Origin: Candidatus Zhuqueibacterota bacterium
GTDB taxonomy: Bacteria > Zhuqueibacterota > Zhuqueibacteria > Thermofontimicrobiales > Thermofontimicrobiaceae
DNA: 64,000 bases
Assembly: GCA_049322915.1 (NCBI GenBank)
Contig: JBMOPW010000019.1
Location: 1 to 64,000 of the forward strand
Direction of reading: 5' to 3'
Made by a program: the position numbers and the translations under genes. Position 1 is the stretch's first letter. Every line of letters starts with the position of its first letter. This document shows positions 11,917-30,878 of this stretch, piece after piece. The notes under the pieces were generated by a model. It saw nothing but the letters and a program-made list of their open reading frames with translations, was not told the origin of the DNA and did no database searches.

Positions 11917-12615
11917 TCTTTCCTCCAGTGAGTTAGTATTCCGCAATTATTTTTTTCAATATAGTAACTTGTAAAAACAAAGTCAAGATGAAATTATAGC
12001 TCCGAGGATAATCCCTGTTTTTCCCATCAGACTGGCATAAGCCGAGCTGTTGAACTTCCGATTGCCCGAGGTGAAAATTTTTCAGGAAAGACTCCGCCGG
12101 CCCGACGACCGGGAACCGTTGCTGCAACCTCACTGAATTCGACCGGATGGTAGAAGAATTCAGGAAAGCGGCTCGTTGCCCGGTCTGCATAAAATCGTTC
12201 ACTGAATATTTTCATGAACCCACCCCGGGTACGCCATTAAAACCTGTGTTGCGCAATTTTTCTCTTGATTAAGAATATAAGAATCCCTATTATTCACAAT
12301 TCAATTTTAACAGCGGCATCGCGTTCCCCCGGGATAAGTCTCTATGCACCCGCCGGGTCCGACAGCATCCTATCGAATGCAACTTTTAAAATAATTAGCC
12401 GTTTATTGTTGCAATCTCAAGCACGGCCGATCGAAACGTCTGGCGGATTCATCGGAAAATCAACCGCATGTTTTTATAGAATGGGGTGTTTAATAGACAT
12501 GAATCGAAATTGGATGTGCCTTGCCGGCTTAGCCCCTGTAAAATGACTGACCTTTGCAACGATTTTGACAGCAACTCTGGCACGTTATGTGGCCTTCGCG
12601 AGGAGATAGAAAACA

Positions 12616-12723: not shown

Positions 12724-12756
12724 TCCATTTTTTTAAAAGAACTAAGGAACAAACGT

Positions 12757-13659
12757 ATGAAAATTTCCATCGAATCACTGAGCAAGATTTATTCTAACGG
12801 AAATAAAGCGCTTAACAACATCAATCTGCAAATCGAAAGCGGTATGTTTGGGTTGCTGGGTCCCAACGGCGCCGGCAAAACCACACTGATGCGAATTCTG
12901 GTCACGCTGATGAAACCATCCCACGGCCAGGTAAAAATCGGGGACTTTGATCTGCAGGCCGATCGCCGCGCCATTCGCTCCATGCTGGGCTATCTGCCTC
13001 AGGACTTCCGATTCTTCACCAAGCTGAAAACCTGGGAATTTCTGGATTACGTCGCCAGCCTGGCTGGATTGCACGAATCGCGCGCCCGCAAAAAAGCTGT
13101 CGATGAGATGCTGGAGAAAGTCGGACTCTACGAAGCCAGAGACCGAATGGCCAACCGGCTCTCCGGCGGAATGAAGCGCCGGCTCGGCATTGCCCAGGCC
13201 CTCATTGGCGATCCGAAAATCGTTGTGGTCGATGAACCCACCACCGGTCTCGACCCGGAAGAACGGATTCGATTCCGAAATCTGCTGGCAGAAATGAGCC
13301 AGCGCGATATCATCATCATCCTGTCCACGCACATTGTCGGAGATATTTCCAGCACGTGCAATAACATGGCGCTGCTGAACAATGGCGATCTCGTTTTCAA
13401 TGCGTCGCCGGATAAACTGGTGGAAAAAGCCAAAGGCCATGTCTGGCTCATCGAGGCAATTGACAGCGAACTGGAGGCCATCAAAGAGAAGTTTCCGGTC
13501 ATTGCCACCGTACCTTCCGAAGCCGGCTGGGAAGTTCAGGTCGTCGCTGATAAGCTGGAGGGTTACCCCGGAAAATTGATCGATCCGAATCTGGAACACG
13601 CGTATGTCTATTTTATGGAATTTGAATTAGGGCAATCCTGGAATGGGGATACCCATTGA
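12757..13659 (+). CDS. ABC transporter ATP-binding protein
   Basis: Walker A GPNGAGKT, Q-loop GYLPQ, signature LSGGM, Walker B VVVDEPT, H-loop STH. Confidence 0.97.
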   Translation: MKISIESLSKIYSNGNKALNNINLQIESGMFGLLGPNGAGKTTLMRILVTLMKPSHGQVKIGDFDLQADRRAIRSMLGYLPQDFRFFTKLKTWEFLDYVASLAGLHESRARKKAVDEMLEKVGLYEARDRMANRLSGGMKRRLGIAQALIGDPKIVVVDEPTTGLDPEERIRFRNLLAEMSQRDIIIILSTHIVGDISSTCNNMALLNNGDLVFNASPDKLVEKAKGHVWLIEAIDSELEAIKEKFPVIATVPSEAGWEVQVVADKLEGYPGKLIDPNLEHAYVYFMEFELGQSWNGDTH

Positions 13660-13733
13660 GCAATTACCTCCGGCCGTTTGGATCTAATCGCAATACAATC
13701 AGAAGCATTGAATAATTTCGAAAGGTTTGAACC

Positions 13734-16700
13734 ATGTTATCTTTGTATAAAATACTGACCGTCGCGAAATACGAGACCAAAACCCTGTTGAGAAGCTGGT
13801 TCTTCAGAATTTTCGCGCTGCTCTCTATTGCCATATTGACGATTCTCAATATCCCATTTTTCAGCCGTATTGGAGAAACCCCCTGGCTTTTCAGAGGGAT
13901 TTCTTCATCTCTCCCCTACATGAATATTCTGCTCCTCAATGTCGTGCAGGCCATCATTGGCGTCTTTTTAGCCTCCGACTTTTTGAAGCGCGATAAAAAA
14001 CTGGATACGACAGAAGTCATCTACATGCGGTCAATGACGAATGGCGATTATGTCCTCGGCAAAACAGTCGGCATTCTCTTCGTATTTGTGGGACTCAATT
14101 TGATCGTTCTGGCCGTCGCTGCTGTGTTCAACATATTCTTCGCCGATGTCTCCATGACCCCCATAGCCTATCTCTACTATCCGTTGATCATCAGCATTCC
14201 CACGCTGGTCTTCATTTTCGGGCTATCGTTCATGTTCATGGTCATCATCCGCAATCAGGCCATCACGTTCATCGTCCTGTTAGGCTACATTACCACCACC
14301 CTGTTTTTCCTGAGTAAAAAACTCAATTACCTGTTCGATTACATGGCGTTTAATATCCCGCTCCTGTATTCCGATTTCATCGGCTTTGGCAATCTCGGGA
14401 CGATCATCATTCACCGTGGGATTTATTTCAGCCTGGGCATTGGATTCATTTTCGCAACGATTCTCATGATCAAACGCCTGCCGCAATCCAAAGCGATGAC
14501 GCGCATGGCGCTCATCGGCGCCGTTGTTTTTATCGCGCTGGGATTAGTTCTGGGCTGGACATATCTCTCCAATCTCGCTTCCGGCGACAATCTCCGCAGC
14601 GCCATGATTGAATTGAACAAAGCGAATGCCGACCATGCCAAAGTCAAGCCGGTTCAATGGGACATCGCACTTGCCCACGAGAATAAAACCCTGGATGTCG
14701 AGGCGAAACTGACCTTTAAAAATGAGTCAGCCTCCCCAATCGACGAGTATTTGTTCAGTCTGAACCCGGGATTAACGGTAACGAAAATCGCCAATCAATC
14801 CGGCGATTTGACTTTCAAACGTAGCCAGCATCTGATTCAGGTAAAACCAGCGCAGCCCCTTGCTCCCGGCAGCATGGACTCTCTCATCGTTCACTATAAC
14901 GGGATCATTAACGAGCAGGCCTGCTATCTGGACATTGACAGCGAGACGCGCAATCAAAATTACCGCGCCTGGATTTACAATGTGGCCAAACGCTTCAGCT
15001 TCATCGAGCCGGATTATGTGCTGCTCACGCCCGAGACCAACTGGTATCCCATTTCAGGCATCCCGTATGGCTCGTCCTATCCCCGGTCTTCTGATAAATA
15101 TTTCAGTACGTTCAAACTCCGCGTCAAAACGCGGCCGGGGCTTACTCCCATTTCTCAGGGCAAGATGGCGGAAATAACTCCCGGCGAGTATTCATTCGAT
15201 CCGGAATTTCCACTACCCCAGATTTCGCTGACCATCGGCGCCTATGAGAAAAAAGCCATTCGCGTGGATAGCGTCGATTACAGCCTGTACTATCTGAAAG
15301 GGCATGATTATTTCTCGCCGTACTTCAAAGATGTTGGCGATACCCTGTCTGCGCTCATCCGGGAGATGAAGCAGGACTATGAAAATAAACTGAACCTGCC
15401 CTATCTGTACCATCGTCTGTCCCTGGTCGAAGTTCCGATTCAATTTTTCAGCTACCAGCGCATCTGGGCTATCGGCCAGGAAACGATTCAGCCTGAAATT
15501 GCACTGCTCCCGGAAAAAGGGATACTCATGGATCGCGCAGATTTCTCGCGATTCTCACGCTGGCAGGAACGCCGGATGGATCGCAGCAATCAGGTCATCA
15601 CTCCCCAGGAATCGCAAAGCCAGTTCCTCAGCGGATTTGTCAACAGCACGCTGCTGGGCGGATCCCGCGGCGGCGGTTTTGGCATGGGGGAGATACTCAA
15701 TGTCACTGTCAACTACAACCTGTTTCCCAATGTCTATACATTTGTCAATCATTTCAATTCAGAGCGCTGGCCAATTTTCAATATTGCGTTCGAGTCCTAT
15801 TTGTATGAACAATCCACCGAGCAGGGGCCATCTTTCCGGCGATTCTTCACCGGCCTGAGCGACGAGGAGAAAGCCAATCTGGCGTTGAGCAAACAGACCC
15901 TGGCTGACATTCTCGTCGATCCGGAACAGAAGGACATCATCAATCAGGTGCTGAAACTGAAAGGCGCCTATTTATTCAAGCTCATTCAAAGCAAATTGGA
16001 TACGGAGTCGTTCGAAAAATTCGTCGCTCATTTGCTTCAATCAAATCGATTCAAAGATATACGAGTGAGTCAGGTTGTTGAAGAAATGAAAAGCCAATTC
16101 AATTACGACATCGAACCGGAATTCAACAACTGGTATCAGAGCAAGCAACTGCCTGCATTTCTGTTCGGAAGTATCGAAGCTTACAAAGTGCTGGATAACG
16201 ACCGCACCCGATTCCAGGTGTTTTTCAAAGTGACAAACCAGGAAGCCATCGACGGTATTATCTCCACAACCTTCAGGATGGGCGGACGCGGCCCCATGTT
16301 TGGATTTGGCGGCATGGATCAACCTGAAGAAAAAGTGTACAGCATCAAAGGCGGCCAGACCATTGAAGTGGGCGTTGTTCTTGATGAAGAGCCGCACATG
16401 ATGGAAATCAACACGCTCATTTCCAAAAACCTCCCGTCCATCAAGACGCATCGGTTCGAAGAGCTTGAAATGAAAGAGAGAGTCGTTCCCTTCGATGGAG
16501 TGAAAATACTGGACGCGCCAATCCAGTTGGCTCTGCCCGGCGAAATCATTGTCGACAATGAAGACCCTGGCTTCGAAGTGCTCTCAAAACCAACGCAGAG
16601 TTTCCTGAAAAAGTTGTTTAAAAAGAAAACCCCGGAAGACGAAGAGCAATATATTGGCTATAATTTCTGGAATCCGCCCTCTGACTGGAGACCCACGACA

Positions 16701-17075
16701 TTTTCGGATTTTTATGGCAAATACATCCAGTCAGCTTACTACATCAAAAAAGGAAGCGGCGACAAGAAAGTCGCCTGGAAAACTGAGTTATCCGAGAGCG
16801 GCACGTTTGATGTCTTTTACTATGTTTCCAAAATGGAAATGCGCTGGGGACGGCGCGAAGACAGAGGACGCGACGTTGATTACGGTCAATTCCATTTCCT
16901 GATTCACCACGACGATGGCGTCGATGACGCTCTGCTCGATATTGACAAAGCCGAAATGGGCTGGAATTTCCTCGGAACCTATTACATTTCCAAAGGCGAA
17001 ACGCGGATCGAATTGACCGATGAGGCCAAGGGGCGCATCGTCTTTGCCGACGCGATCAAGTGGGTGAAAAAATAG
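13734..17075 (+). CDS. ABC-2-type permease fused to a degenerate M1-aminopeptidase-like domain and a C-terminal golvesin/Xly-type carbohydrate-binding-like domain
   Basis: About 7 N-terminal TMs with RDKKLDTTEVIYMRSMTNGDYVLGK; M1-like LTPETNWYP, KGAYLF, FNNWY..QLP; tail IVDNEDPGF..GWNFLGTY..VFADAIKW. Confidence 0.8.
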   Translation: MLSLYKILTVAKYETKTLLRSWFFRIFALLSIAILTILNIPFFSRIGETPWLFRGISSSLPYMNILLLNVVQAIIGVFLASDFLKRDKKLDTTEVIYMRSMTNGDYVLGKTVGILFVFVGLNLIVLAVAAVFNIFFADVSMTPIAYLYYPLIISIPTLVFIFGLSFMFMVIIRNQAITFIVLLGYITTTLFFLSKKLNYLFDYMAFNIPLLYSDFIGFGNLGTIIIHRGIYFSLGIGFIFATILMIKRLPQSKAMTRMALIGAVVFIALGLVLGWTYLSNLASGDNLRSAMIELNKANADHAKVKPVQWDIALAHENKTLDVEAKLTFKNESASPIDEYLFSLNPGLTVTKIANQSGDLTFKRSQHLIQVKPAQPLAPGSMDSLIVHYNGIINEQACYLDIDSETRNQNYRAWIYNVAKRFSFIEPDYVLLTPETNWYPISGIPYGSSYPRSSDKYFSTFKLRVKTRPGLTPISQGKMAEITPGEYSFDPEFPLPQISLTIGAYEKKAIRVDSVDYSLYYLKGHDYFSPYFKDVGDTLSALIREMKQDYENKLNLPYLYHRLSLVEVPIQFFSYQRIWAIGQETIQPEIALLPEKGILMDRADFSRFSRWQERRMDRSNQVITPQESQSQFLSGFVNSTLLGGSRGGGFGMGEILNVTVNYNLFPNVYTFVNHFNSERWPIFNIAFESYLYEQSTEQGPSFRRFFTGLSDEEKANLALSKQTLADILVDPEQKDIINQVLKLKGAYLFKLIQSKLDTESFEKFVAHLLQSNRFKDIRVSQVVEEMKSQFNYDIEPEFNNWYQSKQLPAFLFGSIEAYKVLDNDRTRFQVFFKVTNQEAIDGIISTTFRMGGRGPMFGFGGMDQPEEKVYSIKGGQTIEVGVVLDEEPHMMEINTLISKNLPSIKTHRFEELEMKERVVPFDGVKILDAPIQLALPGEIIVDNEDPGFEVLSKPTQSFLKKLFKKKTPEDEEQYIGYNFWNPPSDWRPTTFSDFYGKYIQSAYYIKKGSGDKKVAWKTELSESGTFDVFYYVSKMEMRWGRREDRGRDVDYGQFHFLIHHDDGVDDALLDIDKAEMGWNFLGTYYISKGETRIELTDEAKGRIVFADAIKWVKK

Positions 17076-17143
17076 CATGCGGATCTGAATTACCATGATA
17101 CTTTAAACTTGGTCCAGTTGAAATTAATAAAGGAAGTTGAAAT

Positions 17144-18634
17144 ATGAAACGTAAAAACCAAGCGGCAATAATCCACGCCTCACTGATTTTGGCGGTACTT
17201 TTGTGTCTCAGCATGACCAGTCCGTCCTATTCCCAGGAACCAATAACCGTGGAGCGAGCGCTGAGTATCGCGTCCAAAAATAGTCCGGACATTCGCAAAT
17301 CCGAGTTGAATCTGGAACGAAGCCAGCAATCGCTCAATGCACAGAAGGCTTCGCTCAAATCCAGTTTCAGCTTAACCCTGACGCCGTTCGATTACGAAAA
17401 GACACGGCAGTTCAACACGTTCTTTTCAACCTGGAACACCAGCGAGAACAAACAATCGTCCGGCACATTCACCATTGCCCAGCCCATCAGTTGGACCGAT
17501 GGCACCTTCGCCATTTTCAATCGGTTTGGCTGGCAGGATTCCTACAGCGAATACCAGGATGTGCGCACCAAATCGTTCAGCAATAATCTCTACCTGAATT
17601 TTCAACAGCCGATCTTCACATACAATCGGACCAGGCTGACATTGAAGGAGTTGGAACTGGACCTCGAAAATACCTCGCTGAGCTATGCCATGCAAAAACT
17701 GAATCTGGAGCGAGATGTCACCGAGGCGTTTTTCACGGTCTACCAGAACAAGATGAGCCGGGAAATCGCCATCGATGAATTTCACAACCGCGAGCAGAGT
17801 TACAATATCATCAAGAACAAGGTAGAAGCCGGGCTGGCTGCTCAGGAAGAGTTGTATCAGGCTGAATTGGACATGGCGAGCAGCAAGTCCAACGTGCAGA
17901 ATACGCAGGTTGCGCTGGACAATTCTCTGGATGCATTCAAACAGTTGATCGGATTATCCCTGTTCGACGACATCACCGTCACCGCGGATGTATCGCATCA
18001 GACAGTGGAAATCGATATGCAAAAAGCGCTGGATCATGGTTTGAAGCACCGGATGGAATTGCGGCAGCGCCAGATCGAGATCGAGAACTCGACGTTCGAT
18101 TTAATTCAGACTTCTGCGACCAATGAATTCAAAGGCAATATCGATCTATCCTATGGCATCATTGGCACGGATGAAGAATTCGAGAAAATGTACGAAGTGC
18201 CGACGCGCAATCAGCGATTGGCGCTGTCCGTGGATATTCCATTATTCGATTGGGGCGCCAAGAAAATGCGCATCAAAGCGTCCGAGGCTGTGGTGAAGTC
18301 GCGCGAGTTATCGTTAGAAGACCAAAAAAACACCATCATCATCGGCGTTCGGCAGGCGTATCGCAATCTGAATAACCTGGTTCAGCAGATAGAAATCGCC
18401 AGGCAGAATCTGCGCAATGCGCAATTGACCTATGACATCAACCTGGAGCGCTACAAAAATGGCGACCTGACCAGTATGGATTTGAATCTGTATCAGAATC
18501 AGCTTTCAGAAAAAAAGAAGGGGCATGTCGAAGCCCTGATCAATTACAAAATAGCCTTGCTGAATATGAAGATTCAATCGCTGTGGGATTTTGAGCAAAA
18601 TAAAGCTGTCGTTCCTGAATTGTCCGAGAAGTAG
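17144..18634 (+). CDS. TolC-family outer membrane factor
   Basis: Signal peptide; ASKNSPDI, LSVDIPLFDWG, ERYKNGDLTSMDL; two-fold helical repeat. Confidence 0.93.
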   Translation: MKRKNQAAIIHASLILAVLLCLSMTSPSYSQEPITVERALSIASKNSPDIRKSELNLERSQQSLNAQKASLKSSFSLTLTPFDYEKTRQFNTFFSTWNTSENKQSSGTFTIAQPISWTDGTFAIFNRFGWQDSYSEYQDVRTKSFSNNLYLNFQQPIFTYNRTRLTLKELELDLENTSLSYAMQKLNLERDVTEAFFTVYQNKMSREIAIDEFHNREQSYNIIKNKVEAGLAAQEELYQAELDMASSKSNVQNTQVALDNSLDAFKQLIGLSLFDDITVTADVSHQTVEIDMQKALDHGLKHRMELRQRQIEIENSTFDLIQTSATNEFKGNIDLSYGIIGTDEEFEKMYEVPTRNQRLALSVDIPLFDWGAKKMRIKASEAVVKSRELSLEDQKNTIIIGVRQAYRNLNNLVQQIEIARQNLRNAQLTYDINLERYKNGDLTSMDLNLYQNQLSEKKKGHVEALINYKIALLNMKIQSLWDFEQNKAVVPELSEK

Positions 18635-18760
18635 CGCGGCGCAGGACATGGTTCAGTGAATCGACTTGTAAAACGCGCGGTTCAACGTTCGGCAAACCGC
18701 GGGTTCACTCATAATATAAAAATTTATTGACTGTTGAAATTTAAATGTAAGGAGTTCATT

Positions 18761-19810
18761 GTGAGATCAGGACTAATTTTGCTGATTGGCCTCGTTCTGT
18801 TAGTAAGCTGCGGTGATCCCGGCGCTGATTCCAGCACCGAAATTGCCGTGCCGGTTTCTGTCGAGGAAGTGCAATATAAACCCATCGAAGAATTCATCGC
18901 CACGACAGGGACTGTCTACGCCATGAAAGAGGCGACGATAACCTCGGAAACTTCAGGCTATTACCGACTGGCCAACAATCCGCGGACAAAACGACCATTC
19001 GCCCTGGGCGATGCGGTGAACAGGAACGAGGTAGTGATTTATCTGGACAATCCGGAATATGAAAACACGACGCGGATCGAATCCCAGAAATTGAACCTGG
19101 ATATTTCCAAAAGCGAATTCGAGAAGCAGAAATCCCTGTTCGATAAAGGCGGCGTCACATTTCGTGAAATGAAGAATGCGGAAAAAACCTATATCGATGC
19201 GCAATACAGCTACGACAATGCCGTCATTCAATTGGCCAAGCTGAAAATAACCGCCCCGTTCGAAGGCATCATCATTGATATTCCCTACTTCACGCAGGGC
19301 ACGAAGGTCGCAGCGAATCAGACTATGCTTCAGGTGATGAACTATCAGCAATTATGGATGGACGTCAGCTTGCCGGGAAAAGAACTGGGCCGCATTCGCG
19401 TCGGCAATAGTGTGCGCGTCATGAATTACACGCTGCCAGACGATACGTTGAAGGGGCAAATCACCCAGACTTCACCAGCGTTAGACCCGAACACCCGGGC
19501 GTTCAAAGCTAGCCTGAGCATCGATAATGCCGGCCTGCTGCTTCGTCCGGGCATGTTCGTGAAAAGCGAAATTATCGTGGCGAGTAAGGACAGCGCCATT
19601 GTGATCCCCAAAGACATTATCCTGTCCAAACGCCGCGGCAAGACGGTGTTCATCGTTGAAAAAGGCGCTGCTGAAGAACGCGCAATCAGCACCGGTCTGG
19701 AAAATCCGGAATTTGTTGAAGTGACCGAAGGGCTCAAAGTGGATGAGCGACTTGTGATTAAAGGCTTTGAAACGCTTCGCAACCGGTCCAAGGTGAAAAT
19801 CATCCGGTAA
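18761..19810 (+). CDS. RND periplasmic adaptor (MFP), lipoprotein
   Basis: GGAG then GTG at 18761; lipobox LVSC; ITAPFEGII, PALDPNTR, LRPGMFV, VEVTEGL. Confidence 0.93.
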   Translation: MRSGLILLIGLVLLVSCGDPGADSSTEIAVPVSVEEVQYKPIEEFIATTGTVYAMKEATITSETSGYYRLANNPRTKRPFALGDAVNRNEVVIYLDNPEYENTTRIESQKLNLDISKSEFEKQKSLFDKGGVTFREMKNAEKTYIDAQYSYDNAVIQLAKLKITAPFEGIIIDIPYFTQGTKVAANQTMLQVMNYQQLWMDVSLPGKELGRIRVGNSVRVMNYTLPDDTLKGQITQTSPALDPNTRAFKASLSIDNAGLLLRPGMFVKSEIIVASKDSAIVIPKDIILSKRRGKTVFIVEKGAAEERAISTGLENPEFVEVTEGLKVDERLVIKGFETLRNRSKVKIIR

Positions 19811-19934
19811 TGGCGGTGGAAATTATTGCCCCATGATTGTCCGTGGCGACCGCTTCGTCCGAACGGATCTGATATCGGGCGCAACGTTGCCGGATTAACG
19901 CCTTGAAATGTGATCAAATAATATTACTTTCAGG

Positions 19935-20129
19935 ATTTATGAGTCCACTCTAAAAAGGGACTGAAGTCCCAAAATCAGAGGTGAATTTCTGTTCCCCGAC
20001 TTAAAAGTCGGGGCTATTCAAGGTATCTAACTTTTTTTCGATGAATTTCCACATCATTTATGACGTGGAAAATAGATCATAACCAACGTATCAAAGCCTT
20101 TTAAGGCTTATTAGAGTCGACCCATTTAT
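19935..20129. mobile_element. 183-bp MITE-like element (19941-20123) with four internal hairpins
   Basis: TIR gagtccactctaa/ttagagtcgaccc (11/13); flanking atttat duplication; hairpins at 19957-19970, 19994-20013, 20046-20071 and 20094-20109. Confidence 0.7.
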
Positions 20130-20143
20130 AAATAGAAAACACT

Positions 20144-23100
20144 ATGAGAAAACTAACAGAATTTTCAGTCAATTATCCGGTTACCATATTGATGCTCGTC
20201 CTGGCCGTATTGCTGCTTGGCTTCATTTCTTTCGAAAAGCTGGGGATCGATCTATTTCCGGATTTGAATAATCCCCGCATCTTCGTCGAACTGAAAGCCG
20301 GCGAACGTCCGCCGGATGAAATAGAGAGCCAATTCGTCGAGCGGATCGAATCGCTGGCCATTCGGCAAAAAAAAGTCATTCAAGTCTCCTCCATCATCCG
20401 CGTGGGCACGGCCCAGATTACGGTTGAATACGGCTGGGACGCCGATATGGACGAGGCTTTCCTTGACCTGCAAAAAACGCTGACCAGCTTCGGCCAGAAC
20501 GCCGAGATCGACGAAATGATCATTTCACAGCACGATCCAAATGCTTCGCCGGTGATGTTGTTAGGCCTTTCCAATGAGCAAATCACCGATATGGATGAAT
20601 TGCGCCGCGTTGCTGAAAACTACCTCCGCAACGAGCTCATCCGGCTCGAGGGAATCGCTGAAGTTGAGTTGCTGGGCCAGGAAGAAAAAGAAGTCGTGAT
20701 TGAGACCAACAATTATCTGATGGAAGCTTACGGTCTGACTCCGGCGACCATTGCCAACCGCATCCGAAATTACAATCGGAATTCGTCCGGCGGATCGATT
20801 GTCGAAATGGGATTGAAATATGTCATTAAAGGTGTCGGTGAATTTCAGTCGCTGGACGATATCGGGAATGTCATTGTCGCCTATAAAACGCACCAAAGCG
20901 CAACCGCCACTGGAACAGCGGTAGATCAGGTGAGCCAGCGCGTGCCGGTCTATTTGAAAGATGTGGCCACGCTGAGTTTAAAAAACAAAGACCCGGAAAA
21001 TATTGTCCGAATCAATTCGACGCGGTGTATGGGGCTGGCCATTTACAAGGAGACCAAATTCAATACAGTCAAAGCAGTCGACGATCTGCTCAATGCGCTC
21101 GAAGAGCTGCGCAAGGCATTGCCCGGCTACTCCATCACGGTGATACAGAATCAGGGTGAGTTCATCAAACAGGCAGTGGATGAAGTGAAGCAGACAGCCC
21201 TCATCGGCGCGCTTCTCGCTGTAGTTGTCCTGTTTATCTTTCTGCGCCGAATTGGCGTCACCACCATCATCAGTGTCGCCATTCCCATTTCGGTAATTGC
21301 CACATTCAATCTCATGTTTTTCAAAGGGCTCACCATTAATGTCATGACATTGGGAGGGTTGGCGCTCGGCGCCGGCATGTTGGTGGACAATGCCATTGTA
21401 GTCATGGAAAATATATTTCAAAAACTGGAGTCCGGCCATTCGCTCCGGGAAGCATCCGTACTTGGGACGAGTCAGGTAGCTACAGCCATCACGTCTTCAA
21501 CCATCACGACGATCGTGGTCTTTCTGCCGATTGTGTACCTTCATGGCTCGGCTGGCGAGTTGTTCAAAGATCAGGCCTGGACCGTGGCGTTCTCGCTTTT
21601 GTCCTCGCTGGTGGTCGCCATCCTGGTAATCCCCATGCTGAGTTCCCGCTTTCTAAAAGGTTTTGCTGCCAGAGAGGAGCAAAAAATTGCCTCACTAAGA
21701 TTTCTCTGGTACAGATCGTTTCTATCGCGCGTGCTTGATCGGCGCTGGACTGTCATTTCAGTCGCAGTGGTACTCATTGTCGCTGCGGTTCTGTTAATAC
21801 CGATCATCGGGAGCGAATTCGTCCCCAGAACCGATCTGAACGAATTCTCCATCGAAATGACTCTGCCTGAAGGCACGGAGCTGGCTCGGACGGAGCAGAC
21901 CGTTGATAATATCGAAAACATTGTCCGCAGCATTCTGGGCGATGAGATTCACACGATTTACAGCCAGATCGGCCCTACAACCGATTTGACCGTCGACGCC
22001 AATGCCGTTTTTGAAGATGAAAATACGGCCACGACAAAAATAATCCTCAAGCCGGATCACAAAATTTCATCGCAACAAGTCATCGCGCAGATAGGCCGGG
22101 CGCTGGAGGATATTCCGGATCTGGAAACGCAATTCATCCAGGAGCAATCCGCGCTGCAGACCACTCTGGGCACCGAGGTCGCCCCCATCCTGGTCGAAAT
22201 CAAAGGTGACGAGATGGAGGTAATTCAGCAACTGACCGAACAGGTGAAGCAAAAAATGCTGGAGATGGCGGACCTGTTCAATGTGGAAAGCAGTTTTGAT
22301 GAAGGGCGCCCGGAAATTGACATAAAGCTCGACCGCGTCCAGGCCGGCATTTACAATCTCAATATTGAGTCAATCACCTCCGAACTGGAAGCGCAACTGG
22401 CCGGCACTACAGCCGGTCAATGGGAAAACGAAGGCGAACTGCAGGACATTACCATCAAGGTGCCGGACATCAGCGTGGGGCAGATAGACGATATTGTCAT
22501 CAACAGCGGCGAGCAGAAAATACGGCTGGATGAAATCGCCACTATCCAATTGACTTCTGCGCCAAAGGAAATTAAGCGCAAAAATCAGGTGCGAATTGGC
22601 ACTATCTCGGCCCATTTAAAAACCAAAAAGCCATTTGACCATGTTGTCAGCCAGATTAAAAAGCAGTTGCAGCAAATTGATTTTCCAGCGGATTACAAAT
22701 TCGAGATAACCGGTGAAGAGCAAAAACGCCAGGAATCATTTTCCAATTTGAAGTTCGCTCTGATCCTTTCCATCATTCTCGTATACATGGTATTGGCTTC
22801 GCAATTCGAATCGTTGCTGCACCCATTCACCATCATCCTCACCATTCCACTGGCAATTGTGGGGACGATTTTCCTGTTCTTCTTCACAGGCCAGACGTTC
22901 AACATGATGGCCTATACCGGCATTATCATGTTGGGTGGCATTGCAGTGAACAACTCCATCCTGCTCGTCGATGCCATCACCCAATTGAGGCAGGAAGGTT
23001 TCGCGCTGCGGGATTCCATTGTTGAAGCCGGACAGCGTCGCATTCGCCCGATTCTCATGACGAGTCTCACGACCATTTTGGCAATGCTGCCGCTAACGTT

Positions 23101-23239
23101 CGGTTTCGGAGAAGGCGCGGCCTTGCGCTCGCCTATGGCAATTGCCGTTGTCGGTGGGTTGGTGACATCGACGCTGATGTCGCTGATTTTTATTCCCTGC
23201 GTTTACTATGTTGTCGAACTGTGGCGTGGAACAAAATAG
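20144..23239 (+). CDS. RND efflux permease (AcrB/MdtB-like)
   Basis: 1031 aa, 12-TM layout; GMLVDNAIVVMEN, LASQFES..HP, RIRPILMT, PMAIAVVGG. Confidence 0.96.
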   Translation: MRKLTEFSVNYPVTILMLVLAVLLLGFISFEKLGIDLFPDLNNPRIFVELKAGERPPDEIESQFVERIESLAIRQKKVIQVSSIIRVGTAQITVEYGWDADMDEAFLDLQKTLTSFGQNAEIDEMIISQHDPNASPVMLLGLSNEQITDMDELRRVAENYLRNELIRLEGIAEVELLGQEEKEVVIETNNYLMEAYGLTPATIANRIRNYNRNSSGGSIVEMGLKYVIKGVGEFQSLDDIGNVIVAYKTHQSATATGTAVDQVSQRVPVYLKDVATLSLKNKDPENIVRINSTRCMGLAIYKETKFNTVKAVDDLLNALEELRKALPGYSITVIQNQGEFIKQAVDEVKQTALIGALLAVVVLFIFLRRIGVTTIISVAIPISVIATFNLMFFKGLTINVMTLGGLALGAGMLVDNAIVVMENIFQKLESGHSLREASVLGTSQVATAITSSTITTIVVFLPIVYLHGSAGELFKDQAWTVAFSLLSSLVVAILVIPMLSSRFLKGFAAREEQKIASLRFLWYRSFLSRVLDRRWTVISVAVVLIVAAVLLIPIIGSEFVPRTDLNEFSIEMTLPEGTELARTEQTVDNIENIVRSILGDEIHTIYSQIGPTTDLTVDANAVFEDENTATTKIILKPDHKISSQQVIAQIGRALEDIPDLETQFIQEQSALQTTLGTEVAPILVEIKGDEMEVIQQLTEQVKQKMLEMADLFNVESSFDEGRPEIDIKLDRVQAGIYNLNIESITSELEAQLAGTTAGQWENEGELQDITIKVPDISVGQIDDIVINSGEQKIRLDEIATIQLTSAPKEIKRKNQVRIGTISAHLKTKKPFDHVVSQIKKQLQQIDFPADYKFEITGEEQKRQESFSNLKFALILSIILVYMVLASQFESLLHPFTIILTIPLAIVGTIFLFFFTGQTFNMMAYTGIIMLGGIAVNNSILLVDAITQLRQEGFALRDSIVEAGQRRIRPILMTSLTTILAMLPLTFGFGEGAALRSPMAIAVVGGLVTSTLMSLIFIPCVYYVVELWRGTK

Positions 23240-23405
23240 CCTGATTCTGTGAATCTCAGTCGCCTGTGACGTTTCGTGAAAAACGAGTTGCAACGGCTTG
23301 AAAACGGGACTGATACACGGAGCGGTTGAAGTTTCAAAAATCGTCGGATTTGCGATTGCTTCGGTCTCTTTACATTGAACATATTTTGAAGGTAAAATTC
23401 GATTT

Positions 23406-26400
23406 ATGAATATTATCCAGTTTGCTATCAAACGAAAAACATTCATCAGCATGCTTTTCATCATGCTTTGCTTATTGGGATATGTTTCCTACAAGCAGTT
23501 GCCGGTGGAACTATTTCCCAGTGCGGATTTGCCCTTTCTGATTGTCCAGGTTACCGGCATGAGGGAGATGGATCCGGATTACATGGAGAAACAGGCCGTC
23601 ATCCCGCTGGAGGGCGCCATTTCGACGCTGGAGGGAATTGATCAAATTGAATCCACGGTTAATTCCCGGAATTGTATGATCACGGTATCCTACAATCAGA
23701 ACGTGAAAATTAAATATGCCTATTTGCGCTTGCAGGAAAAAGTGAACACTGTGAAGAGCACGCTGGGCGATGAATTTTCCGTGAATGTCGTCAAGATTGA
23801 CACCGAGCTGCTGGCCAATATGTTCATGTCATTGCAGGTTCGCGGCGAAGGAGGAGTCGATCGGGTGCGGCAGATCGCTGACAAAGAGATTGTCCAGGAG
23901 CTGGAAAATATCGACGGTATCGCCAATGTGGAAATTTTCGGCGGTCGCGCGAAATCCGTGGAAATTATTCTTAATGAAGAAGCCTGCCGCGCTCACCGGA
24001 TCACTGCGGCTCAGATACAATCGCTGATTGCCAGCAACAACAGCAGCAAAACCTATCTGGGTCAGGTGTACGATAAAAACAAACACTACGTTGTGAACCT
24101 CGTGGCCGATTATACCGATGTCCATGACCTGGAAAATATCGTCATCAACCGCACCGGCCCGGTCCTCCTCAAAGACATTGCCGATGTGTTCGTCGGTTCG
24201 AAAGAAGAAGAATCCCTGAGCCGGGTCAATGGGAAAGAGGCGATTACAGTTCAGTTGGTTCGGGATACCCAGGTGAATCTGATTGAACTGTCGCACACTA
24301 CGCGCGCGGCCATTGATCGGCTGAATGAAGAACTGGCGCCGCAAGGCATCGAGATTGTGATTCAGAGCGATACAGCCGAGGACATGGAGCGGAACATCGA
24401 CCTGATCAAGGAATTGGCGCTGATTGGCGGTCTGCTGGCCATTATGATTCTATATTTTTTCCTGCGTCATTTGCAACTGGTAATTGTCATTGCCTTTGCA
24501 ATTCCAATCTCCGTATTCACCGCATTTAATTTCTTCTACGCATACGACATCACACTCAACAGCCTCACGCTTGTCGGACTTGCACTGGCTGTTGGGATGC
24601 TGCTGGATAACAGCGTCGTCGTGCTTGAAAATATCTACCGCCTCACGGCAGCCAATAAGGATCCGGATACGGCTGTGGTCCAAGGCACCAATCAGGTCTG
24701 GCGGTCTATTTTCGCCTCGACGCTGTCCACAGTGACGGTCTTTCTGCCGTTCATTTTTTCCAATGAATATATTGTCAGGACTATTGGTCTTCACGTGGGT
24801 GTTTCCATTATCTCCACGCTGATCGTCTCCTTTTTTGTCGCGTTGTTGCTCATCCCGGTTGCCACGCACTGGTTCCTGACCCGGAAGAAAAATGTGAACC
24901 TGGAGAGCCTGAACTTCAATGTGGTCTCCGCCAAGAATCGACTGATTCAGATCTACCGCGTGTTCTTGAAGTCCACCATCCGTTTCCCGGCGCGGACAAT
25001 TTTAGGGGCATGGATATTCTTTTTCCTCAGCATCATTCTGTGTTTCGCGCTGAGTTTGAATGTGTCTCGTGAAGCCGAATTGAAGGATTTCAACCTCTAC
25101 GTGACAATGCCCAGCGGCGCCACGCTCGACGCCACGGACGCAGTCACCGCAGAGTTGGAAGAGCGTCTCGCCGACATCAAAGAGAAGCAGGATGTTGTCA
25201 GCCAGATTTACGAAGAAGAGGCCATCCTCAATGTCAAGCTAAAAGACGACTACGAGAAAATCGACGGCCGCACCATTGCCCAGGTGAAAAGTGAGATACA
25301 AAATCGGCTGAACGACTTCCACGCTGCCGAGGTGAGTTTTGAGCAGCCCACAGCCAGCCGGCGTTTTGGCGGTGGCAGATCCGGCGGCGGTAACCAGGCC
25401 ATGCGAATGGAGCGAATGCTGGGTATCGGCGCGCAGACAGAGACGATCAAAATCAAAGGCCGGGATTTCGACATGATGCGGAATGTCGCCGAAGAAATTC
25501 GCTATTATCTGGAAGACCTGTCTTCCATGCGGCGCGTGAATTTGAACATCGCCGACAATCGGCCGGAAATACACCTGTTGTTCGATACGGAACTGATGAG
25601 TCATTACGATGTGCCGATTTCATCCATCACATCCGAATTGGCCGGCTTCCAAAACGAGTTCACGTCCGGCATGACCTACAAACAGGGGACCGATGAATAC
25701 GACATCGTAATCCGAAATGAAAATCTCGAAGATAAAACCATCAATGATTTGAAAACGCTTCGCATCCAGTCTCAATCGGAGGGGCTGTTCGAGCTGGATC
25801 AATTGAGCCGCATCGTCTACTCTTTCGGACTGTCAGGCATCAATCGCATCAATCAGGAAAAAGAGATCGAAGTGACTTTCCAATTCCTCGACGAAGTGAA
25901 TGAATCCAAATCCGTGCTGGAAAAGTCGCGGATGGAAGTCGATCAAATCATCGCCAATATGCAAATCCCGGCTGGCATTGCTGTCGAAATTATACACGAA
26001 GACACCTCCGAATTGCAGGAATTCTATTTCCTCATCGCTGCGGCTTTCATTCTGATCTACATGATCCTCGCCTCAGTGTTCGAATCGCTGGCAACGCCGG
26101 TGGTGATGATGTTCACCATTCCACTGGCAGCCATCGGCTCGTTCTGGGCGCTGATTCTGACCGGGAACTCCCTCATCAACGTCAATTCCCTGATCGGATT
26201 TTTAATTCTGCTGGGGCTGGTCGTCAATAATGGTATCATCCTCATCGACTATACCCGCATACTGCGAAACCAGGGCTACGATCGGTCTCGCGCGCTCATC
26301 ATGGCTGGCCAGGCGCGGGTGCGACCTATTTTAATCACCAGTATCACCACCATCATCGCCATGCTGCCCCTGGCGCTGGGAAAAGCCGAGTATGTGACGC

Positions 26401-28133
26401 AGATTGGCGCTCCCTTCGCCATCACAGTGATTGGCGGCCTGTCGCTCAGCACGCTGTTCACGCTGGTGTTCATTCCGACCTTTTACTCCGGTTTCGAAAG
26501 TTCGCTCATCTGGCTGAACCAATTGAACTGGAAAACCAAAGCAATCCAGATTTTCGTTTTCGCCGCTGGTTCTGCGCTCATTTACTACAACATTGATAGC
26601 CTCATCTGGCGTTTCATCACCCTGTTTGCCATTATCGTTTTAATTCCCGGCACCACCTATTTCATCATGACCAGCTTGCGTCAGGCCAGGGCCGACTATA
26701 TCAAGCCGACTGAATCGCTGCGCATTACGATCAAACACGTCGTTAAAATTTATGAAGATAGCTCCCGGTTTGTCAAGGAATGGAACAAAGGACACATCAT
26801 TCAGGAGCACGCCGGGCTCACAAAGAAATACACCTCGTGGCGGGACCTGGATTCGCTCGTCTGGCAAATTCCTGTCATCGGGTTTCTGATTTATTTCACC
26901 TATTTTTATCAGCGCAATTTTTTCTGGGCATTGGTCTTCTCCAGCGGCATTTACTTTTTGGCCCTTGTCGCCTGGCGTCCCGTGCTATTGTATTTCCAGA
27001 ACACGCGCGACCCCAACGCCCGTTCGTTCCGAATGAAACTGATTGACCTGCTGCAGCCGCTCTTCTTCTGGGGCTTCCCGGCAGTCAATTTAATTATCTA
27101 TTACCTGAAATGGAAAAATCTGGCGATTGTCATTTTCCTCGCCGTGGTCTGGTATCTGGCGCTATCTATTTACACTACATCGAATCAGCTCCACAAGCAC
27201 AAAGTGAACATCATGCGACTCACGGGCCGATTCGCCGGACTGCGCCGGGCCTTCTACCAGTTTGTTCAGATCATCCCGGTCATTGGCAAAAAGAAAACGC
27301 CTTTCCGCGCGCTGGATGGTGTGTCGTTAGAAATTGGCAGCGGCATGTTCGGTCTGCTGGGACCCAATGGCGCCGGCAAAACAACCCTGATGCGAATCAT
27401 CTGCGGCATCCTCGAACAAACGCGCGGGACCATCTGGATCAACGATATCGATTTGAAAGACAAACGGGAAGAGTTACAGGGACTGATCGGGTATCTGCCA
27501 CAGGAGTTCGGGACATACGAGAACATGACCGCGTTCGAATTTCTGAATTATCAGGCTATTCTCAAAAATATTTATGACAAAGAGGAACGGGAAAAACGAG
27601 TCGATTTCTGCATCAATTCTGTGCATCTTGAAAAGAATAAAAATCAAAAAATCGGCTCATTCTCCGGCGGCATGAAACAGCGAATTGGCATTGCCCAGAC
27701 GCTGCTGCACCTGCCCCGCATTTTAGTCGTGGATGAGCCAACTGCCGGACTGGACCCGCGCGAGCGAATTCGTTTCAGAAATCTGCTTGTGGAATTGAGC
27801 CGGGAGCGCATTGTCATTTTCTCGACGCACATCATCGAAGATATCTCCAGTTCATGCAATAAAGTCGCTGTGCTCAACCGGGGAAAACTCTGCTATCTGG
27901 GCGATCCCCAGGAGATGACCAAGAGCGCGGAAGGCTTCGTCTGGCAGTTTCACATCGCCACAAAAGAGTTCGAGGAGCGGCAAAAGGACCTCTGGATTGT
28001 CCATCACATGCGCGATGGAGAGAGTATCCGCGTGCGGTGTCTGTCCGGCAGCAAGCCTGATCCGGAAGCCCAGGAAGTGCGTCCGACCCTGGAAGACGCC
28101 TATCTCTGGCTGTTGCGAAAGTCAAGTAGTTAA
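23406..28133 (+). CDS. RND permease fused to extra TM helices and an ABC ATPase domain
   Basis: Continuous 1575-aa ORF: aa 1 to ~1030 RND (GMLLDNSVVVLEN, RVRPILIT); C-terminal NBD with GPNGAGKT, FSGGM, LVVDEPT, STH. Confidence 0.93.
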   Translation: MNIIQFAIKRKTFISMLFIMLCLLGYVSYKQLPVELFPSADLPFLIVQVTGMREMDPDYMEKQAVIPLEGAISTLEGIDQIESTVNSRNCMITVSYNQNVKIKYAYLRLQEKVNTVKSTLGDEFSVNVVKIDTELLANMFMSLQVRGEGGVDRVRQIADKEIVQELENIDGIANVEIFGGRAKSVEIILNEEACRAHRITAAQIQSLIASNNSSKTYLGQVYDKNKHYVVNLVADYTDVHDLENIVINRTGPVLLKDIADVFVGSKEEESLSRVNGKEAITVQLVRDTQVNLIELSHTTRAAIDRLNEELAPQGIEIVIQSDTAEDMERNIDLIKELALIGGLLAIMILYFFLRHLQLVIVIAFAIPISVFTAFNFFYAYDITLNSLTLVGLALAVGMLLDNSVVVLENIYRLTAANKDPDTAVVQGTNQVWRSIFASTLSTVTVFLPFIFSNEYIVRTIGLHVGVSIISTLIVSFFVALLLIPVATHWFLTRKKNVNLESLNFNVVSAKNRLIQIYRVFLKSTIRFPARTILGAWIFFFLSIILCFALSLNVSREAELKDFNLYVTMPSGATLDATDAVTAELEERLADIKEKQDVVSQIYEEEAILNVKLKDDYEKIDGRTIAQVKSEIQNRLNDFHAAEVSFEQPTASRRFGGGRSGGGNQAMRMERMLGIGAQTETIKIKGRDFDMMRNVAEEIRYYLEDLSSMRRVNLNIADNRPEIHLLFDTELMSHYDVPISSITSELAGFQNEFTSGMTYKQGTDEYDIVIRNENLEDKTINDLKTLRIQSQSEGLFELDQLSRIVYSFGLSGINRINQEKEIEVTFQFLDEVNESKSVLEKSRMEVDQIIANMQIPAGIAVEIIHEDTSELQEFYFLIAAAFILIYMILASVFESLATPVVMMFTIPLAAIGSFWALILTGNSLINVNSLIGFLILLGLVVNNGIILIDYTRILRNQGYDRSRALIMAGQARVRPILITSITTIIAMLPLALGKAEYVTQIGAPFAITVIGGLSLSTLFTLVFIPTFYSGFESSLIWLNQLNWKTKAIQIFVFAAGSALIYYNIDSLIWRFITLFAIIVLIPGTTYFIMTSLRQARADYIKPTESLRITIKHVVKIYEDSSRFVKEWNKGHIIQEHAGLTKKYTSWRDLDSLVWQIPVIGFLIYFTYFYQRNFFWALVFSSGIYFLALVAWRPVLLYFQNTRDPNARSFRMKLIDLLQPLFFWGFPAVNLIIYYLKWKNLAIVIFLAVVWYLALSIYTTSNQLHKHKVNIMRLTGRFAGLRRAFYQFVQIIPVIGKKKTPFRALDGVSLEIGSGMFGLLGPNGAGKTTLMRIICGILEQTRGTIWINDIDLKDKREELQGLIGYLPQEFGTYENMTAFEFLNYQAILKNIYDKEEREKRVDFCINSVHLEKNKNQKIGSFSGGMKQRIGIAQTLLHLPRILVVDEPTAGLDPRERIRFRNLLVELSRERIVIFSTHIIEDISSSCNKVAVLNRGKLCYLGDPQEMTKSAEGFVWQFHIATKEFEERQKDLWIVHHMRDGESIRVRCLSGSKPDPEAQEVRPTLEDAYLWLLRKSSS

Positions 28134-28172
28134 ATGAACCTGTATGTCTCATGAACAAACCGGGCATTTTTT

Positions 28173-28895
28173 ATGGACTTAAAAACAAAACTTTTAAACA
28201 TCTTCGATCTGTTGTCAAAACTGATTCGCTATAATCTGAAAATCATTTTCGCCAACAAATTCATTTACATGCTGCTCTCGGCGTTGGCGATTTTCATCCT
28301 GGTGACAGTCATCATGCTGTTCGATGAAAATTCCAATCCCGATGTCGGCTCGGTGTACTACTTGCTCCTCGTGCCGGGGCTGCTGCTCATTTTCTACCCG
28401 ACCACGTTCGGCATCCAGAATGACGTGGACGCCCGCATGCTGGAAATACTGTTTGGGATTCCGAACTACCGCTATAAAATCTGGCTGGTTCGCGTGATCA
28501 TCATTTACATTGGCGTCTTTTTCATCCTGCTTCTGCTGGGCATACTCAGCTCGATTGCCCTCACGTCGATCCCGATTTTCTCGATGGTGGTTCAACTCAT
28601 GTTCCCGATCTTCTTTTTGGGCAGCCTGGCGTTTTTATTTTCGACGCTGATCCGCAATGGGTACGGAACCGCAGTGGTGATCATCATCATCGGCCTCGTC
28701 TTCTGGATCGCCGGCGGGATTTTATCCAACACAAAATGGAATATCTTTCTCAATCCATTCGACATTCCCTCCGATGTCAATGAAGTGATCTGGCAGAATA
28801 TTACAACCAACAATCGGATCATTCTGCTCGTCGGGACTGTGGTCGCAATTTTATGGGGTTTGCTGAATCTGCAGAAGCGGGAGAAGTTTGTGTAA
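28173..28895 (+). CDS. ABC-2-type permease (6 TM)
   Basis: Six hydrophobic segments; coupling-helix-like NDVDARMLEILFGIP; FLFSTLIRNG; FLNPF. Confidence 0.75.
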   Translation: MDLKTKLLNIFDLLSKLIRYNLKIIFANKFIYMLLSALAIFILVTVIMLFDENSNPDVGSVYYLLLVPGLLLIFYPTTFGIQNDVDARMLEILFGIPNYRYKIWLVRVIIIYIGVFFILLLLGILSSIALTSIPIFSMVVQLMFPIFFLGSLAFLFSTLIRNGYGTAVVIIIIGLVFWIAGGILSNTKWNIFLNPFDIPSDVNEVIWQNITTNNRIILLVGTVVAILWGLLNLQKREKFV

Positions 28896-28977: not shown

Positions 28978-29011
28978 AAACGCTGATTGGCAGGGAGCTA
29001 ATCAGCGTTTT
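28978..29011 (+). terminator. Intrinsic terminator closing the ABC/RND operon
   Basis: aaacgctgatt/aatcagcgttt stem ending in a T run. Confidence 0.65.
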
Positions 29012-29051
29012 CGTTATGTAAAATTCGACCTGCTTCAAAGGACATTGCATT

Positions 29052-30821: not shown

Positions 30822-30878
30822 TTTGCCCTGGAATTTTAATGAACGTACACGACAATTTCAACGAGAAAGGATGTTTGC

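Follow-up and report, generated by a model that had tools for sequence, protein, structure and literature searches.

We examined a 64,000-nucleotide stretch of contig JBMOPW010000019.1 (assembly GCA_049322915.1) from a Candidatus Zhuqueibacterota bacterium, hereafter referred to as the window, and focused on a cassette of seven genes (g1 to g7) that encodes parts of an ATP-binding cassette (ABC) transporter together with parts of a tripartite resistance-nodulation-division (RND) pump, and in which one ABC ATPase is covalently fused to an RND subunit. In the open reading frame (ORF) listing of the window, the seven genes lie on the plus strand and span positions 12757-28895. A previous reading of this DNA made from the letters alone (the sequence-only reading) had already described seven co-oriented genes, whose coordinates agree exactly with those of the ORFs. 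The first gene, g1 (12757..13659), encodes a free ABC ATPase of 300 amino acids (aa) with a Pfam ABC_tran match of 109.3 bits, the closest paralogue of the fused ATPase. It is followed by g2 (13734..17075), coding for an ABC-2/NosY-like permease of 1113 aa whose periplasmic arm is recognised by Golvesin_C and Peptidase_M1 matches in its orthologues. The product of g3 (17144..18634; 496 aa) is a TolC-like outer-membrane factor (Pfam OEP, 156.8 bits) with a Sec signal peptide recognised on inspection of its N-terminus, and g4 (18734..19810; 358 aa) encodes a periplasmic adaptor, or membrane fusion protein (MFP), which carries a lipoprotein signal with an LVSC lipobox, matches HlyD_D23/HlyD_3 and reaches 182.1 bits against the NCBIfam model RND_mfp (cutoff 94.9). 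Two RND genes come next: g5 (20144..23239; 1031 aa) for the unfused permease RND1, and g6 (23406..28133; 1575 aa) for RND2 and its ABC ATPase. The set ends with g7 (28173..28895), which adjoins g6 and codes for a small ABC-2-like permease of 240 aa with ABC2_membrane matches in its orthologues. The components previously ascribed to a tripartite RND pump, i.e. TolC, MFP and two RND subunits, are thus recovered as matches to OEP, RND_mfp and, twice, ACR_tran.

The predicted fusion of an RND permease with a nucleotide-binding domain (NBD) on one polypeptide was confirmed for g6, in which ACR_tran covers residues 3-1028 (573.6 bits) and ABC_tran residues 1303-1447 (107.2 bits) of a single open frame. 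We defined residues 1030-1575 as the g6 tail (546 residues; the numbering of tail alignments and models counts from its start) and searched with it across 5.8 billion proteins. All 120 relatives among the tail matches listed carry both PF00873 and PF00005; they share 56-92% identity, mostly measure 1524-1640 aa and stem from candidate division KSB1, Calditrichaeota, Latescibacteria, Gemmatimonadota, Krumholzibacteriota and Bacteroidota, among others. Within the phylum of the window, the fused tail was detected in 72 of 167 species genomes (43%; E <= 1e-80) and in 48 of the 105 genomes that are at least 90% complete, with open frames of the fused gene mostly between 1555 and 1650 aa. A scan with one genome per species located the fusion at no fewer than 591 loci (a lower bound) across phyla of the Fibrobacteres-Chlorobi-Bacteroidetes (FCB) group; of 80 such loci, 72 could be judged and 63 of these contain an NBD-bearing ORF of more than 1500 aa. 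Cultured carriers include Prolixibacter bellariivorans ATCC BAA-1284, Gaoshiqia hydrogeniformans, G. sediminis, Carboxylicivirga linearis and Marinifilum fragile JCM 15579, in whose phylum the fusion is patchy (4 of 401 genomes in an even sample, the seed genome being among the four). For the critical region between 26500 and 27400, a 38,282-base contig from an independent assembly of a run, possibly that of the source sample, matches positions 25500-28900 with 0 differences, and sequences of low depth from three further runs extend over portions of the linker and of the linker-ATPase junction. An assembly artefact is ruled out by this identical contig together with the listed relatives and the genomes and loci counted above, and the view that the fusion is ancient and conserved is supported.

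The linker itself was also used as a query (270 residues against 1.84 billion representatives). It gave 99 matches, of which 14 have 1550-1585 aa and hold the linker at approximately residues 1024-1298, directly after the RND domain, the rest being shorter; among these representatives, the linker is seen in this protein family alone. No clear unfused ancestor was found: two of the three shorter linker matches inspected begin inside the RND domain and are cut pieces of fusions. P0170 (526 aa), a shorter linker match, begins inside TM13, where TM denotes a transmembrane helix. Two loci of the phylum deviate from the usual form of the fused gene. Locus L025 (G147:C2, 1977-3161) holds an orphan ATPase of the fused clade (394 aa, with an N-terminal extension of about 100 residues), which sits among unrelated oxidoreductase and desaturase genes in a genome whose g2 lies on a different contig. 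At L026 (G085:C2, 1945-6649), in a near-complete genome, the fused gene is spread over two overlapping frames that break within the linker; an uninterrupted copy is found in the sister genome G086 (L018), and the break stems either from an error in sequencing or from recent decay.

The ATPase is more than a plain C-terminal addition to RND2, which is what an NBD fused to an RND subunit would suggest: the fusion as such stands, but it includes two extra TM helices and a four-helix insertion that splits strand 1 of the ATPase from its Walker A motif. Altogether, six membrane helices, split 2 + 4, lie in the 260-residue stretch that connects the RND domain to Walker A. The RND2 permease domain (g6 residues 1-1029, 23406..26492, 12 TM helices, matched by ACR_tran) is followed by TM13 and TM14 (residues 1042-1091, 26529..26678), a tether between RND2 and ATPase that appears as helices 13-33 and 37-62 in an AlphaFold2 model of the tail, within a block of predicted local distance difference test (pLDDT) values of 82-94. 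Alignment and model then place ATPase strand 1 with the A-loop Tyr (K..Y), followed by an amphipathic helix R-x-x-R-E-W-x-K, at residues 1107-1135 (26724..26810). The four-helix membrane insertion between strands 1 and 2, delimited by helices of the model, takes up residues 1145-1265 (26838..27200), and the remaining ABC ATPase with its C-terminal domain, recognised by ABC_tran and structural matches, residues 1300-1575 (27303..28133).

An alignment of 28 tails shows the same order, namely two hydrophobic helices, the strand-1 stretch, about 180 residues with four long hydrophobic helices and finally 'ALxxVSLxI..GMFGLLGPNGAGKT'. The strand-1 stretch reads L-x-I-x-I-x-n-l-x-K-I-Y and then R-x-x-R-E-W-x-K, with I78, K85, Y87, R92 and E96 invariant in 28/28 tails, and is the counterpart of the g1 N-terminal 'KISIESLSKIY'. 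In the tail model (mean pLDDT 80.9; predicted template modelling score 0.60), a strand at 78-87 and a helix at 92-106 precede insertion helices at 116-139, 143-170, 179-207 and 210-236, and the ATPase core begins at 271; about 180 residues with four long helices hence separate strand 78-87 from strand 271-281. Structural alignments of the model to free NBDs bypass the insertion (Z up to 27.2). Since they start at model residues 74-77 and at residues 1-3 of the NBD chains, strand 1 is in its normal place in the model, i.e. the fold is kept and the chain interrupted. The fused ATPase therefore departs from a contiguous NBD, in which strand 1 and the A-loop directly precede strand 2 and Walker A. 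Its best structural matches (Foldseek, VIA) are TM_1403, EcfA, NosF, LptB and the NBDs of ABCA/ABCG, with NosF at Foldseek rank 2 and VIA Z 25.5. The predicted total of 12 + 2 + 4 helices is consistent with a cytoplasmic location of both ATPase pieces. Neither a consistent Pfam family nor an Atlas look-alike above 0.80 was found for the four-helix insertion and linker. We also considered the linker as a third six-helix ABC permease and rejected this candidate (E 0.18 and probability 0.3% against the g7 profile; helices split 2 + 4 around strand 1). Linker motifs, fusion and insertion are kept down to about 40% identity.

Both ATPases were expected to be catalytically intact paralogues, and the wider sample agrees: Walker A, Q-loop, signature, Walker B-Glu, D-loop and H-loop are invariant in 28/28 fused tails and 22/22 g1 orthologues, and the quoted strings that the two NBDs were said to share, ERIRFRNLL included, are both found in both ATPases. 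The fused NBD is 42% identical to g1 (228 bits), the next NBD of the genome scoring 145 bits. In a tree of 22 g1 and 28 fused ATPases with 6 other ATPases of this genome, g1 and the fused NBD form sister clades (support 99/97), each of which divides into the same two subclades. Because of this matching division, the duplication appears to predate the diversification of the cassette, with both copies having diverged in step. The two are classed as ATPases of the DrrA/GldA/NosF (ABC-2) kind; the GldA equivalog cutoff of NCBIfam (402.6 bits) is reached neither by g1 (187.5) nor by the g6 tail (182.3).

On the RND side, g5 is a full-length permease (ACR_tran at residues 5-1024, 730.6 bits with a cutoff of 28 bits) and has MdtB as its closest solved chain (9lyq_B, 317 bits). 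The two RND subunits are distant paralogues (358 bits), g5 being nearer to other RNDs of the genome. We compared both with E. coli AcrB from the annotated K-12 record. At AcrB positions 407/408/414/940/971/978, g5 has D N E N R T; g5 and g6 keep D407, E414, R971 and T978 and carry Asn at positions 408 and 940, and thereby depart from the AcrB-type relay of D407, D408, K940 and R971. Could the fused ATPase replace or supplement the proton-motive force in driving the RND cycle? The incomplete relay, with D408 and K940 changed to Asn and D407 and R971 kept in both subunits, would fit this explanation, as would the recurrence of the pattern in 77/85 RND1 and 87/93 RND2 orthologues and the covalent attachment of an ATPase whose membrane insertion could touch the RND membrane domain. 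However, the altered relay is shared by all 7 RND paralogues of the genome (six D-N...N, one D-C...N), five of which have no ATPase. For this reason the relay change was ruled out as a signature of the fusion, and it is a trait of the lineage. In addition, the two dedicated ABC-2 permeases and the second ATPase point to an ATPase that serves an ABC transporter, and we regard an ATP-powered RND cycle as most improbable. The five further RND permeases of the genome (G000) are encoded at C14:370074-373316, C36:11174-14281, C3:87014-90139, C45:127300-130353 and C35:108276-111338 and have TM4 Asp-Asn or Asp-Cys with TM10 Asn.

A second feature is confined to RND2. At the site of the cleft-entrance loop of AcrB (660-682), it has a Gly-rich insertion (25356-25418, g6 residues 651-671), and the loop measures 30-47 residues in 93/93 RND2 proteins compared to 23-24 in 85 RND1 proteins and 22 in AcrB.

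The membrane partners of the ATPases are the products of g2 and g7. About 7 TM helices were counted by eye at the N-terminus of g2 (residues 1-280; simple hydropathy gives 6), followed by an arm of about 830 residues without any further hydrophobic segment. Peptidase_M1 and Golvesin_C each match 23/23 g2 orthologues, and ABC2_membrane_2 matches 8/23 below threshold. In the window, the sole Pfam match of g2 is Golvesin_C (984-1111), Peptidase_M1 scoring 15.7 bits with a gathering score of 27.7. Compared with solved chains, the g2 profile matches M1 aminopeptidases at approximately 722-850 (best E 5e-10) and the C-terminus of a xanthan lyase at 987-1110. The zinc-site motif HExxH and the exopeptidase motif GxMEN were found in 0/23 g2 orthologues. 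Judged from these matches, the arm appears to be a zinc-less M1-peptidase-like shell with a sugar-binding-type Golvesin_C tip. Homologues of g2 are named hypothetical by NCBI and, for some, after the NosY permease by JGI.

For g7, the orthologues match ABC2_membrane_3 (10/27) and ABC2_membrane_2 (9/27), the best ABC2_membrane E values in orthologues being 2e-4 for g2 and 4.9e-5 for g7. The g7 protein of the window has no Pfam match, its profile retrieved no solved chain up to E 10, and its alignment to the g2 N-terminus with hhalign is collinear and weak (E 0.0017, probability 15.6%). Complex prediction of the g6 tail with g7 gave a score of 0.70, the best of 3 controls reaching 0.00; the mark applied is reached by 116/157 solved complexes and by 2/215 mismatched pairs, and the pass may reflect likeness to solved complexes of ABC NBDs with their permeases. 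Agreement between runs was at least 87% of contacts, with a partner pLDDT of at least 78. In the predicted interface, the Q-loop region of the NBD (tail 326-363) faces g7 residues 8-27, 87-103 and 227-240; its g7 side holds the invariant residues D86, E91, F94, R100, Y101 and K102, as would be the case for a coupling helix. According to this model, g7 is predicted to dock on the fused ATPase via its coupling helix. The docking prediction and the adjacency of the genes suggest two half-transporters, one consisting of g1 and g2 and the other of the g6 tail and g7. Elsewhere, we observed g2-like large permeases in pairs, P0269 and P0313 on a 25,176-base Gemmatimonadota contig (consecutive locus tags) and P0274 and P0322 on a 31,598-base contig; cassettes of a variant type, in which two permeases bear arms, may exist.

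The seven proteins were mapped on 30 fetched loci of the phylum. All seven genes are collinear in 20/30 loci, L026 included, and form two divergent units, g1-g5 and g6-g7, in L016 and L022. In L011, L012 and L015, g6-g7, with or without g5, lie apart from g1-g4; four loci (L017, L021, L027 and L029) are cut by contig ends and L025 is the orphan ATPase only. Across phyla, 54 of the 55 loci with at least 9.9 kb upstream (from the same 80) hold g2, g3, g4, g5 and g6, and g7 directly follows g6 in 72/78. In three cultured carriers, a g1 orthologue and the fused ATPase share a strand, the former lying about 14 kb upstream. When g2 and the fused tail were traced across the 167 genomes, both were present in 71, the tail only in 1 (a 78%-complete genome), g2 only in 9 and neither in 86; in G077 and G079, g2 and g6 are located on different contigs. 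This survey of architecture and synteny, which the sequence-only reading had proposed, supports its expectation that the fusion recurs and that ABC and RND genes occur together.

Do the seven genes then encode one machine or two? A conventional RND pump and a conventional ABC-2 transporter handling related substrates might have been fused for co-regulation, co-localisation or assembly, without mechanical coupling. This explanation would agree with the division of the gene set into g1-g5 and g6-g7 (L016, L022) or over different contigs (G077, G079), and single-component and tripartite pumps are reported to cooperate without contact (PMC4338810). Nevertheless, the pairs g6-g7 and g1-g2 stay together in every split seen among the phylum loci. 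The fusion, the invariant R92 and E96 and the four-helix insertion persist down to the identity level given above, and all 14 of the 99 linker matches that reach at least 1550 aa put the linker right after the RND domain. Two machines without mechanical coupling are in our view improbable.

Spacers inside g1-g7 measure 39-333 nt, and from strand, spacing and conservation we infer that the genes form an operon. A hairpin of 14 bp (28978-29010) followed by UUUUCGUU closes the set; as hairpin with U tract (28978..29017, plus strand) it resembles an intrinsic terminator, has a fold energy of -20.8 kcal/mol (z -5.27) and was equalled in stability by 0/200 shuffles, in line with the single closing terminator described earlier. 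This hairpin is absent from the list given by a consensus terminator scan. An 810-nt spacer (11947-12756) precedes g1. Compared to the same-genus genome G124, its few conserved blocks are a promoter-like site (TTGATT-17 nt-TATTAT; 12265..12293, plus strand), recognised by consensus match and conservation in the two genomes, and short blocks near 12370-12510. The position of this site, about 465 nt 5' of g1, suggests a leader of that length; no Rfam riboswitch match near any gathering score was obtained in the 810-nt spacer. The gap between g4 and g5 (19811-20143) has 333 nt, compared to approximately 10-250 nt in most related loci such as L005, L001 and L004, and contains a promoter-like match at 19895-19922.

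In the window, the cassette has peptidase genes on both sides (6870-10712 and 29052-32892), with M28 and S13 upstream and M24 and M28 downstream. In several other loci, M64, S9, S41, M19 and S49 peptidases adjoin it, and no one family recurs. A 739-aa ORF at 37970-40189 joins matches to Bactofilin, DUF5686 and Omp85 in an unusual domain combination. The downstream neighbours of the cassette are housekeeping or assorted genes, e.g. NusA/RimP, an M64 peptidase with MscS, or MutL, and no conserved neighbour was found among 80 ORFs from 27 loci (a subset of the 158 ORFs in the 53 loci whose downstream DNA sufficed). Because the genes downstream of g7 are unconserved, the cassette appears to be self-contained and without a biosynthetic context. 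It is also single-copy. Since it is present in 43% of the genomes of the phylum and recurs in several further phyla of the FCB group, a general role in the envelope of these poorly known bacteria of sediments and biofilms is probable.

We tentatively favour, at slightly less than an even chance, the reading that the seven genes encode one machine, in which a heterodimeric ABC-2 module is tethered to an RND1/RND2 heterotrimer and brings a substrate to it for expulsion. The exit duct would be formed by the heterotrimer, probably with one RND2, together with the lipoprotein adaptor g4 and the TolC-like channel g3. A heterodimeric ABC-2 transporter (type V) would be attached to the C-terminus of RND2 via TM13 and TM14; the half so held would consist of the fused ATPase and g7, and the second half of g1, the free ATPase, and g2, the large permease. 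Hydrolysis of ATP by the pair of ATPases from g1 and g6 would power both permeases and the periplasmic arm of g2, and a substrate, whether cytoplasmic, periplasmic or located in the inner membrane, could pass into the entry cleft of neighbouring RND subunits and from there out via the channel. The single complex, the 2:1 ratio of RND1 to RND2 and the direction of the hand-over are what we infer here, the ratio by analogy with MdtBC, which works as a B2C1 heterotrimer according to the part of PMC7015380 used. With one fused subunit per trimer there would be one fused ATPase for one g1, and the mismatch between a three-fold pump and a two-fold transporter would therefore be solved. The same arrangement would account for two RND and two ATPase paralogues of which one of each pair is joined. 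The presence of two RND paralogues, only one of them fused, the proximity of g5 to MdtB and a cleft loop remodelled in RND2 alone all argue in favour of this reading, as do the conserved fusion and gene order, the joint inheritance of g2 and the fused tail, the sister ATPases with their intact motifs, the predicted docking of g7 and the consistent helix topology.

Several observations weigh against it. The cassette is split in L016 and L022 (g1-g5 from g6-g7) and in G077 and G079 (g2 and g6 contigs), and the flanking genes are unconserved and offer no clue to a substrate. The type V ABC complex NosDFY, whose arm is also periplasmic, functions with no substrate crossing the membrane, as described in the sections of PMC13685413 on which we draw; because of this example, loading of a pump is not the sole possible role of the module. 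Two earlier claims hold in part. For the two ABC-2 membrane domains, matches in some g2 and g7 orthologues and the predicted coupling-helix contact stand on one side; on the other, the window's own g2 N-terminus and g7 match no Pfam ABC2_membrane model. The ABC-2 identity of these two regions is the weakest part of the whole observation, its basis being faint sequence signals, the NosY-type name used by JGI and a predicted contact. Association of the fused NBD with ABC-2 permeases agrees with the predicted docking of g7 (0.70 versus 0.00), but the four-helix insertion makes no confident contact to g7 in the prediction. The findings named beforehand as speaking against the hybrid machine were an artefact or an architecture unique to this contig, ABC and RND genes that do not occur together, and a fused NBD that does not associate with the permeases; what we found is a genuine and recurrent fusion, co-occurring genes and an association by prediction.

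Since the large permease bears a zinc-less M1-like periplasmic arm, there is a serious rival to the extraction of a substrate by the ABC-2 module. The module might move nothing across the inner membrane and act as a mechanotransducer or gate, in which ATP drives a motion of the g2 arm, and the arm either captures a ligand from the periplasm or the cell surface and hands it to the RND cleft or gates access to this cleft. RND pumps draw their substrates from the periplasm and the outer leaflet, which suits this explanation, as does the remodelled cleft-entrance loop of RND2. An arm of about 830 residues whose zinc site is lost in 23/23 orthologues would be a binding shell and not an enzyme, and the inactive peptidase shell, together with the Golvesin_C tip, might point to a peptide or glycan ligand, which is a guess. 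Further points in its favour are the naming of g2 homologues after NosY by JGI, the high rank of NosF among the structures most similar to the fused ATPase and the behaviour of NosDFY, in which ATP drives a cycling of partners on the periplasmic arm and no transport was observed, according to the sections of PMC13685413 referred to above. On the other hand, the two permeases each retain a complete ABC-2-like core of six helices, and a periplasmic arm is absent from g7; we consider a mechanotransducer or gate unlikely. Returning to the tethered loader, a dual-energy form of the machine is conceivable, and we hold it to be possible but doubtful: the heterodimeric ABC-2 transporter would be hard-wired to the odd RND subunit via the membrane-embedded split ATPase, ATP and the proton-motive force would act in sequence on one substrate, and the four-helix insertion would transmit the nucleotide state to the RND membrane domain.

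Tripartite efflux pumps are classed by their engine (RND, ABC or major facilitator superfamily), and these engines are treated as alternatives. A natural, conserved RND-ABC fusion raises the question whether two energy sources are coupled in one machine, how a three-fold pump fits a two-fold transporter and what an ATPase does with four membrane helices inside its fold. Its occurrence in cultured strains of non-pathogenic bacteria makes the cassette directly testable. Databases label the fused proteins generically, and in the open full-text literature, to which our search was directed (subscription journals being outside its scope), we found no description of an RND-ABC fusion, including the sections used of a review of tripartite pumps (PMC8277102) and of an RND phylogeny (PMC10872679).

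How does the cassette relate to known systems? With MdtABC-TolC and MuxABC-OpmB it shares tandem RND paralogues beside one adaptor together with an outer-membrane factor, and MdtB2C1 provides a precedent for a trimer with one odd subunit in the part of PMC7015380 cited above. In contrast to these pumps, the odd RND of the cassette has six extra membrane helices and an ABC ATPase, and a second ATPase and two ABC-2-like permeases are added. The relay is D-N...N and not D-D...K, and the equivalog cutoffs for MdtB and MdtC in NCBIfam (1584 and 1774 bits) are far from the scores of g5 (364 and 359.7) and g6 (282.9 and 269.8). MacAB-TolC likewise combines an ABC ATPase, an adaptor and a TolC-like channel in one system and has a periplasmic domain on its ABC permease. 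However, MacB is a type VII ABC protein with four helices and its own periplasmic domain that works without an RND, whereas the cassette ATPases are of the DrrA/GldA/NosF (ABC-2) kind, and no FtsX or MacB_PCD family was found by Pfam in the seven cassette proteins at E <= 0.01.

The closest relatives of the ABC part are NosDFY and other type V systems (GldAFG, Wzm-Wzt, ABCA/ABCG), which have ATPases of the same class and fold and with which the cassette shares putative six-helix ABC-2-like permeases and a predicted coupling-helix contact. The large periplasmic arm of g2 resembles the provision of NosD for NosY, as described in the same sections of PMC13685413. In the cassette, by contrast, the arm is fused to the permease and has a shell derived from an M1 peptidase, and the predicted transporter is heterodimeric; one of its ATPases is attached to an RND and has four membrane helices inserted in its chain. 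The arm itself can be compared with M1 zinc aminopeptidases (PepN, ERAP, tricorn factor F3), as g2 residues 722-850 approximately match the helical part of the catalytic domain, e.g. 1z1w_A 338-453. It differs from these enzymes in lacking HExxH and GxMEN in 23/23 orthologues, in its anchoring to an ABC-2 permease and in its Golvesin_C end.

In the SecYEG-SecA translocon with SecDF, an ATP-driven step at the inner membrane is aided on the periplasmic side by a proton-driven member of the RND superfamily. Its components are separate and unfused, its substrate is protein and there is no outer-membrane duct; weak NCBIfam SecDF matches of g5 reflect the shared superfamily only. The regulatory insertion in NBD1 of CFTR occupies the same site of the ABC fold, between strands 1 and 2, but is short, soluble and disordered, whereas the insertion in the fused ATPase comprises about 180 residues and four membrane helices. 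The single parts of the cassette are thus of known kinds, and it is their combination and the membrane-split ATPase that are new.

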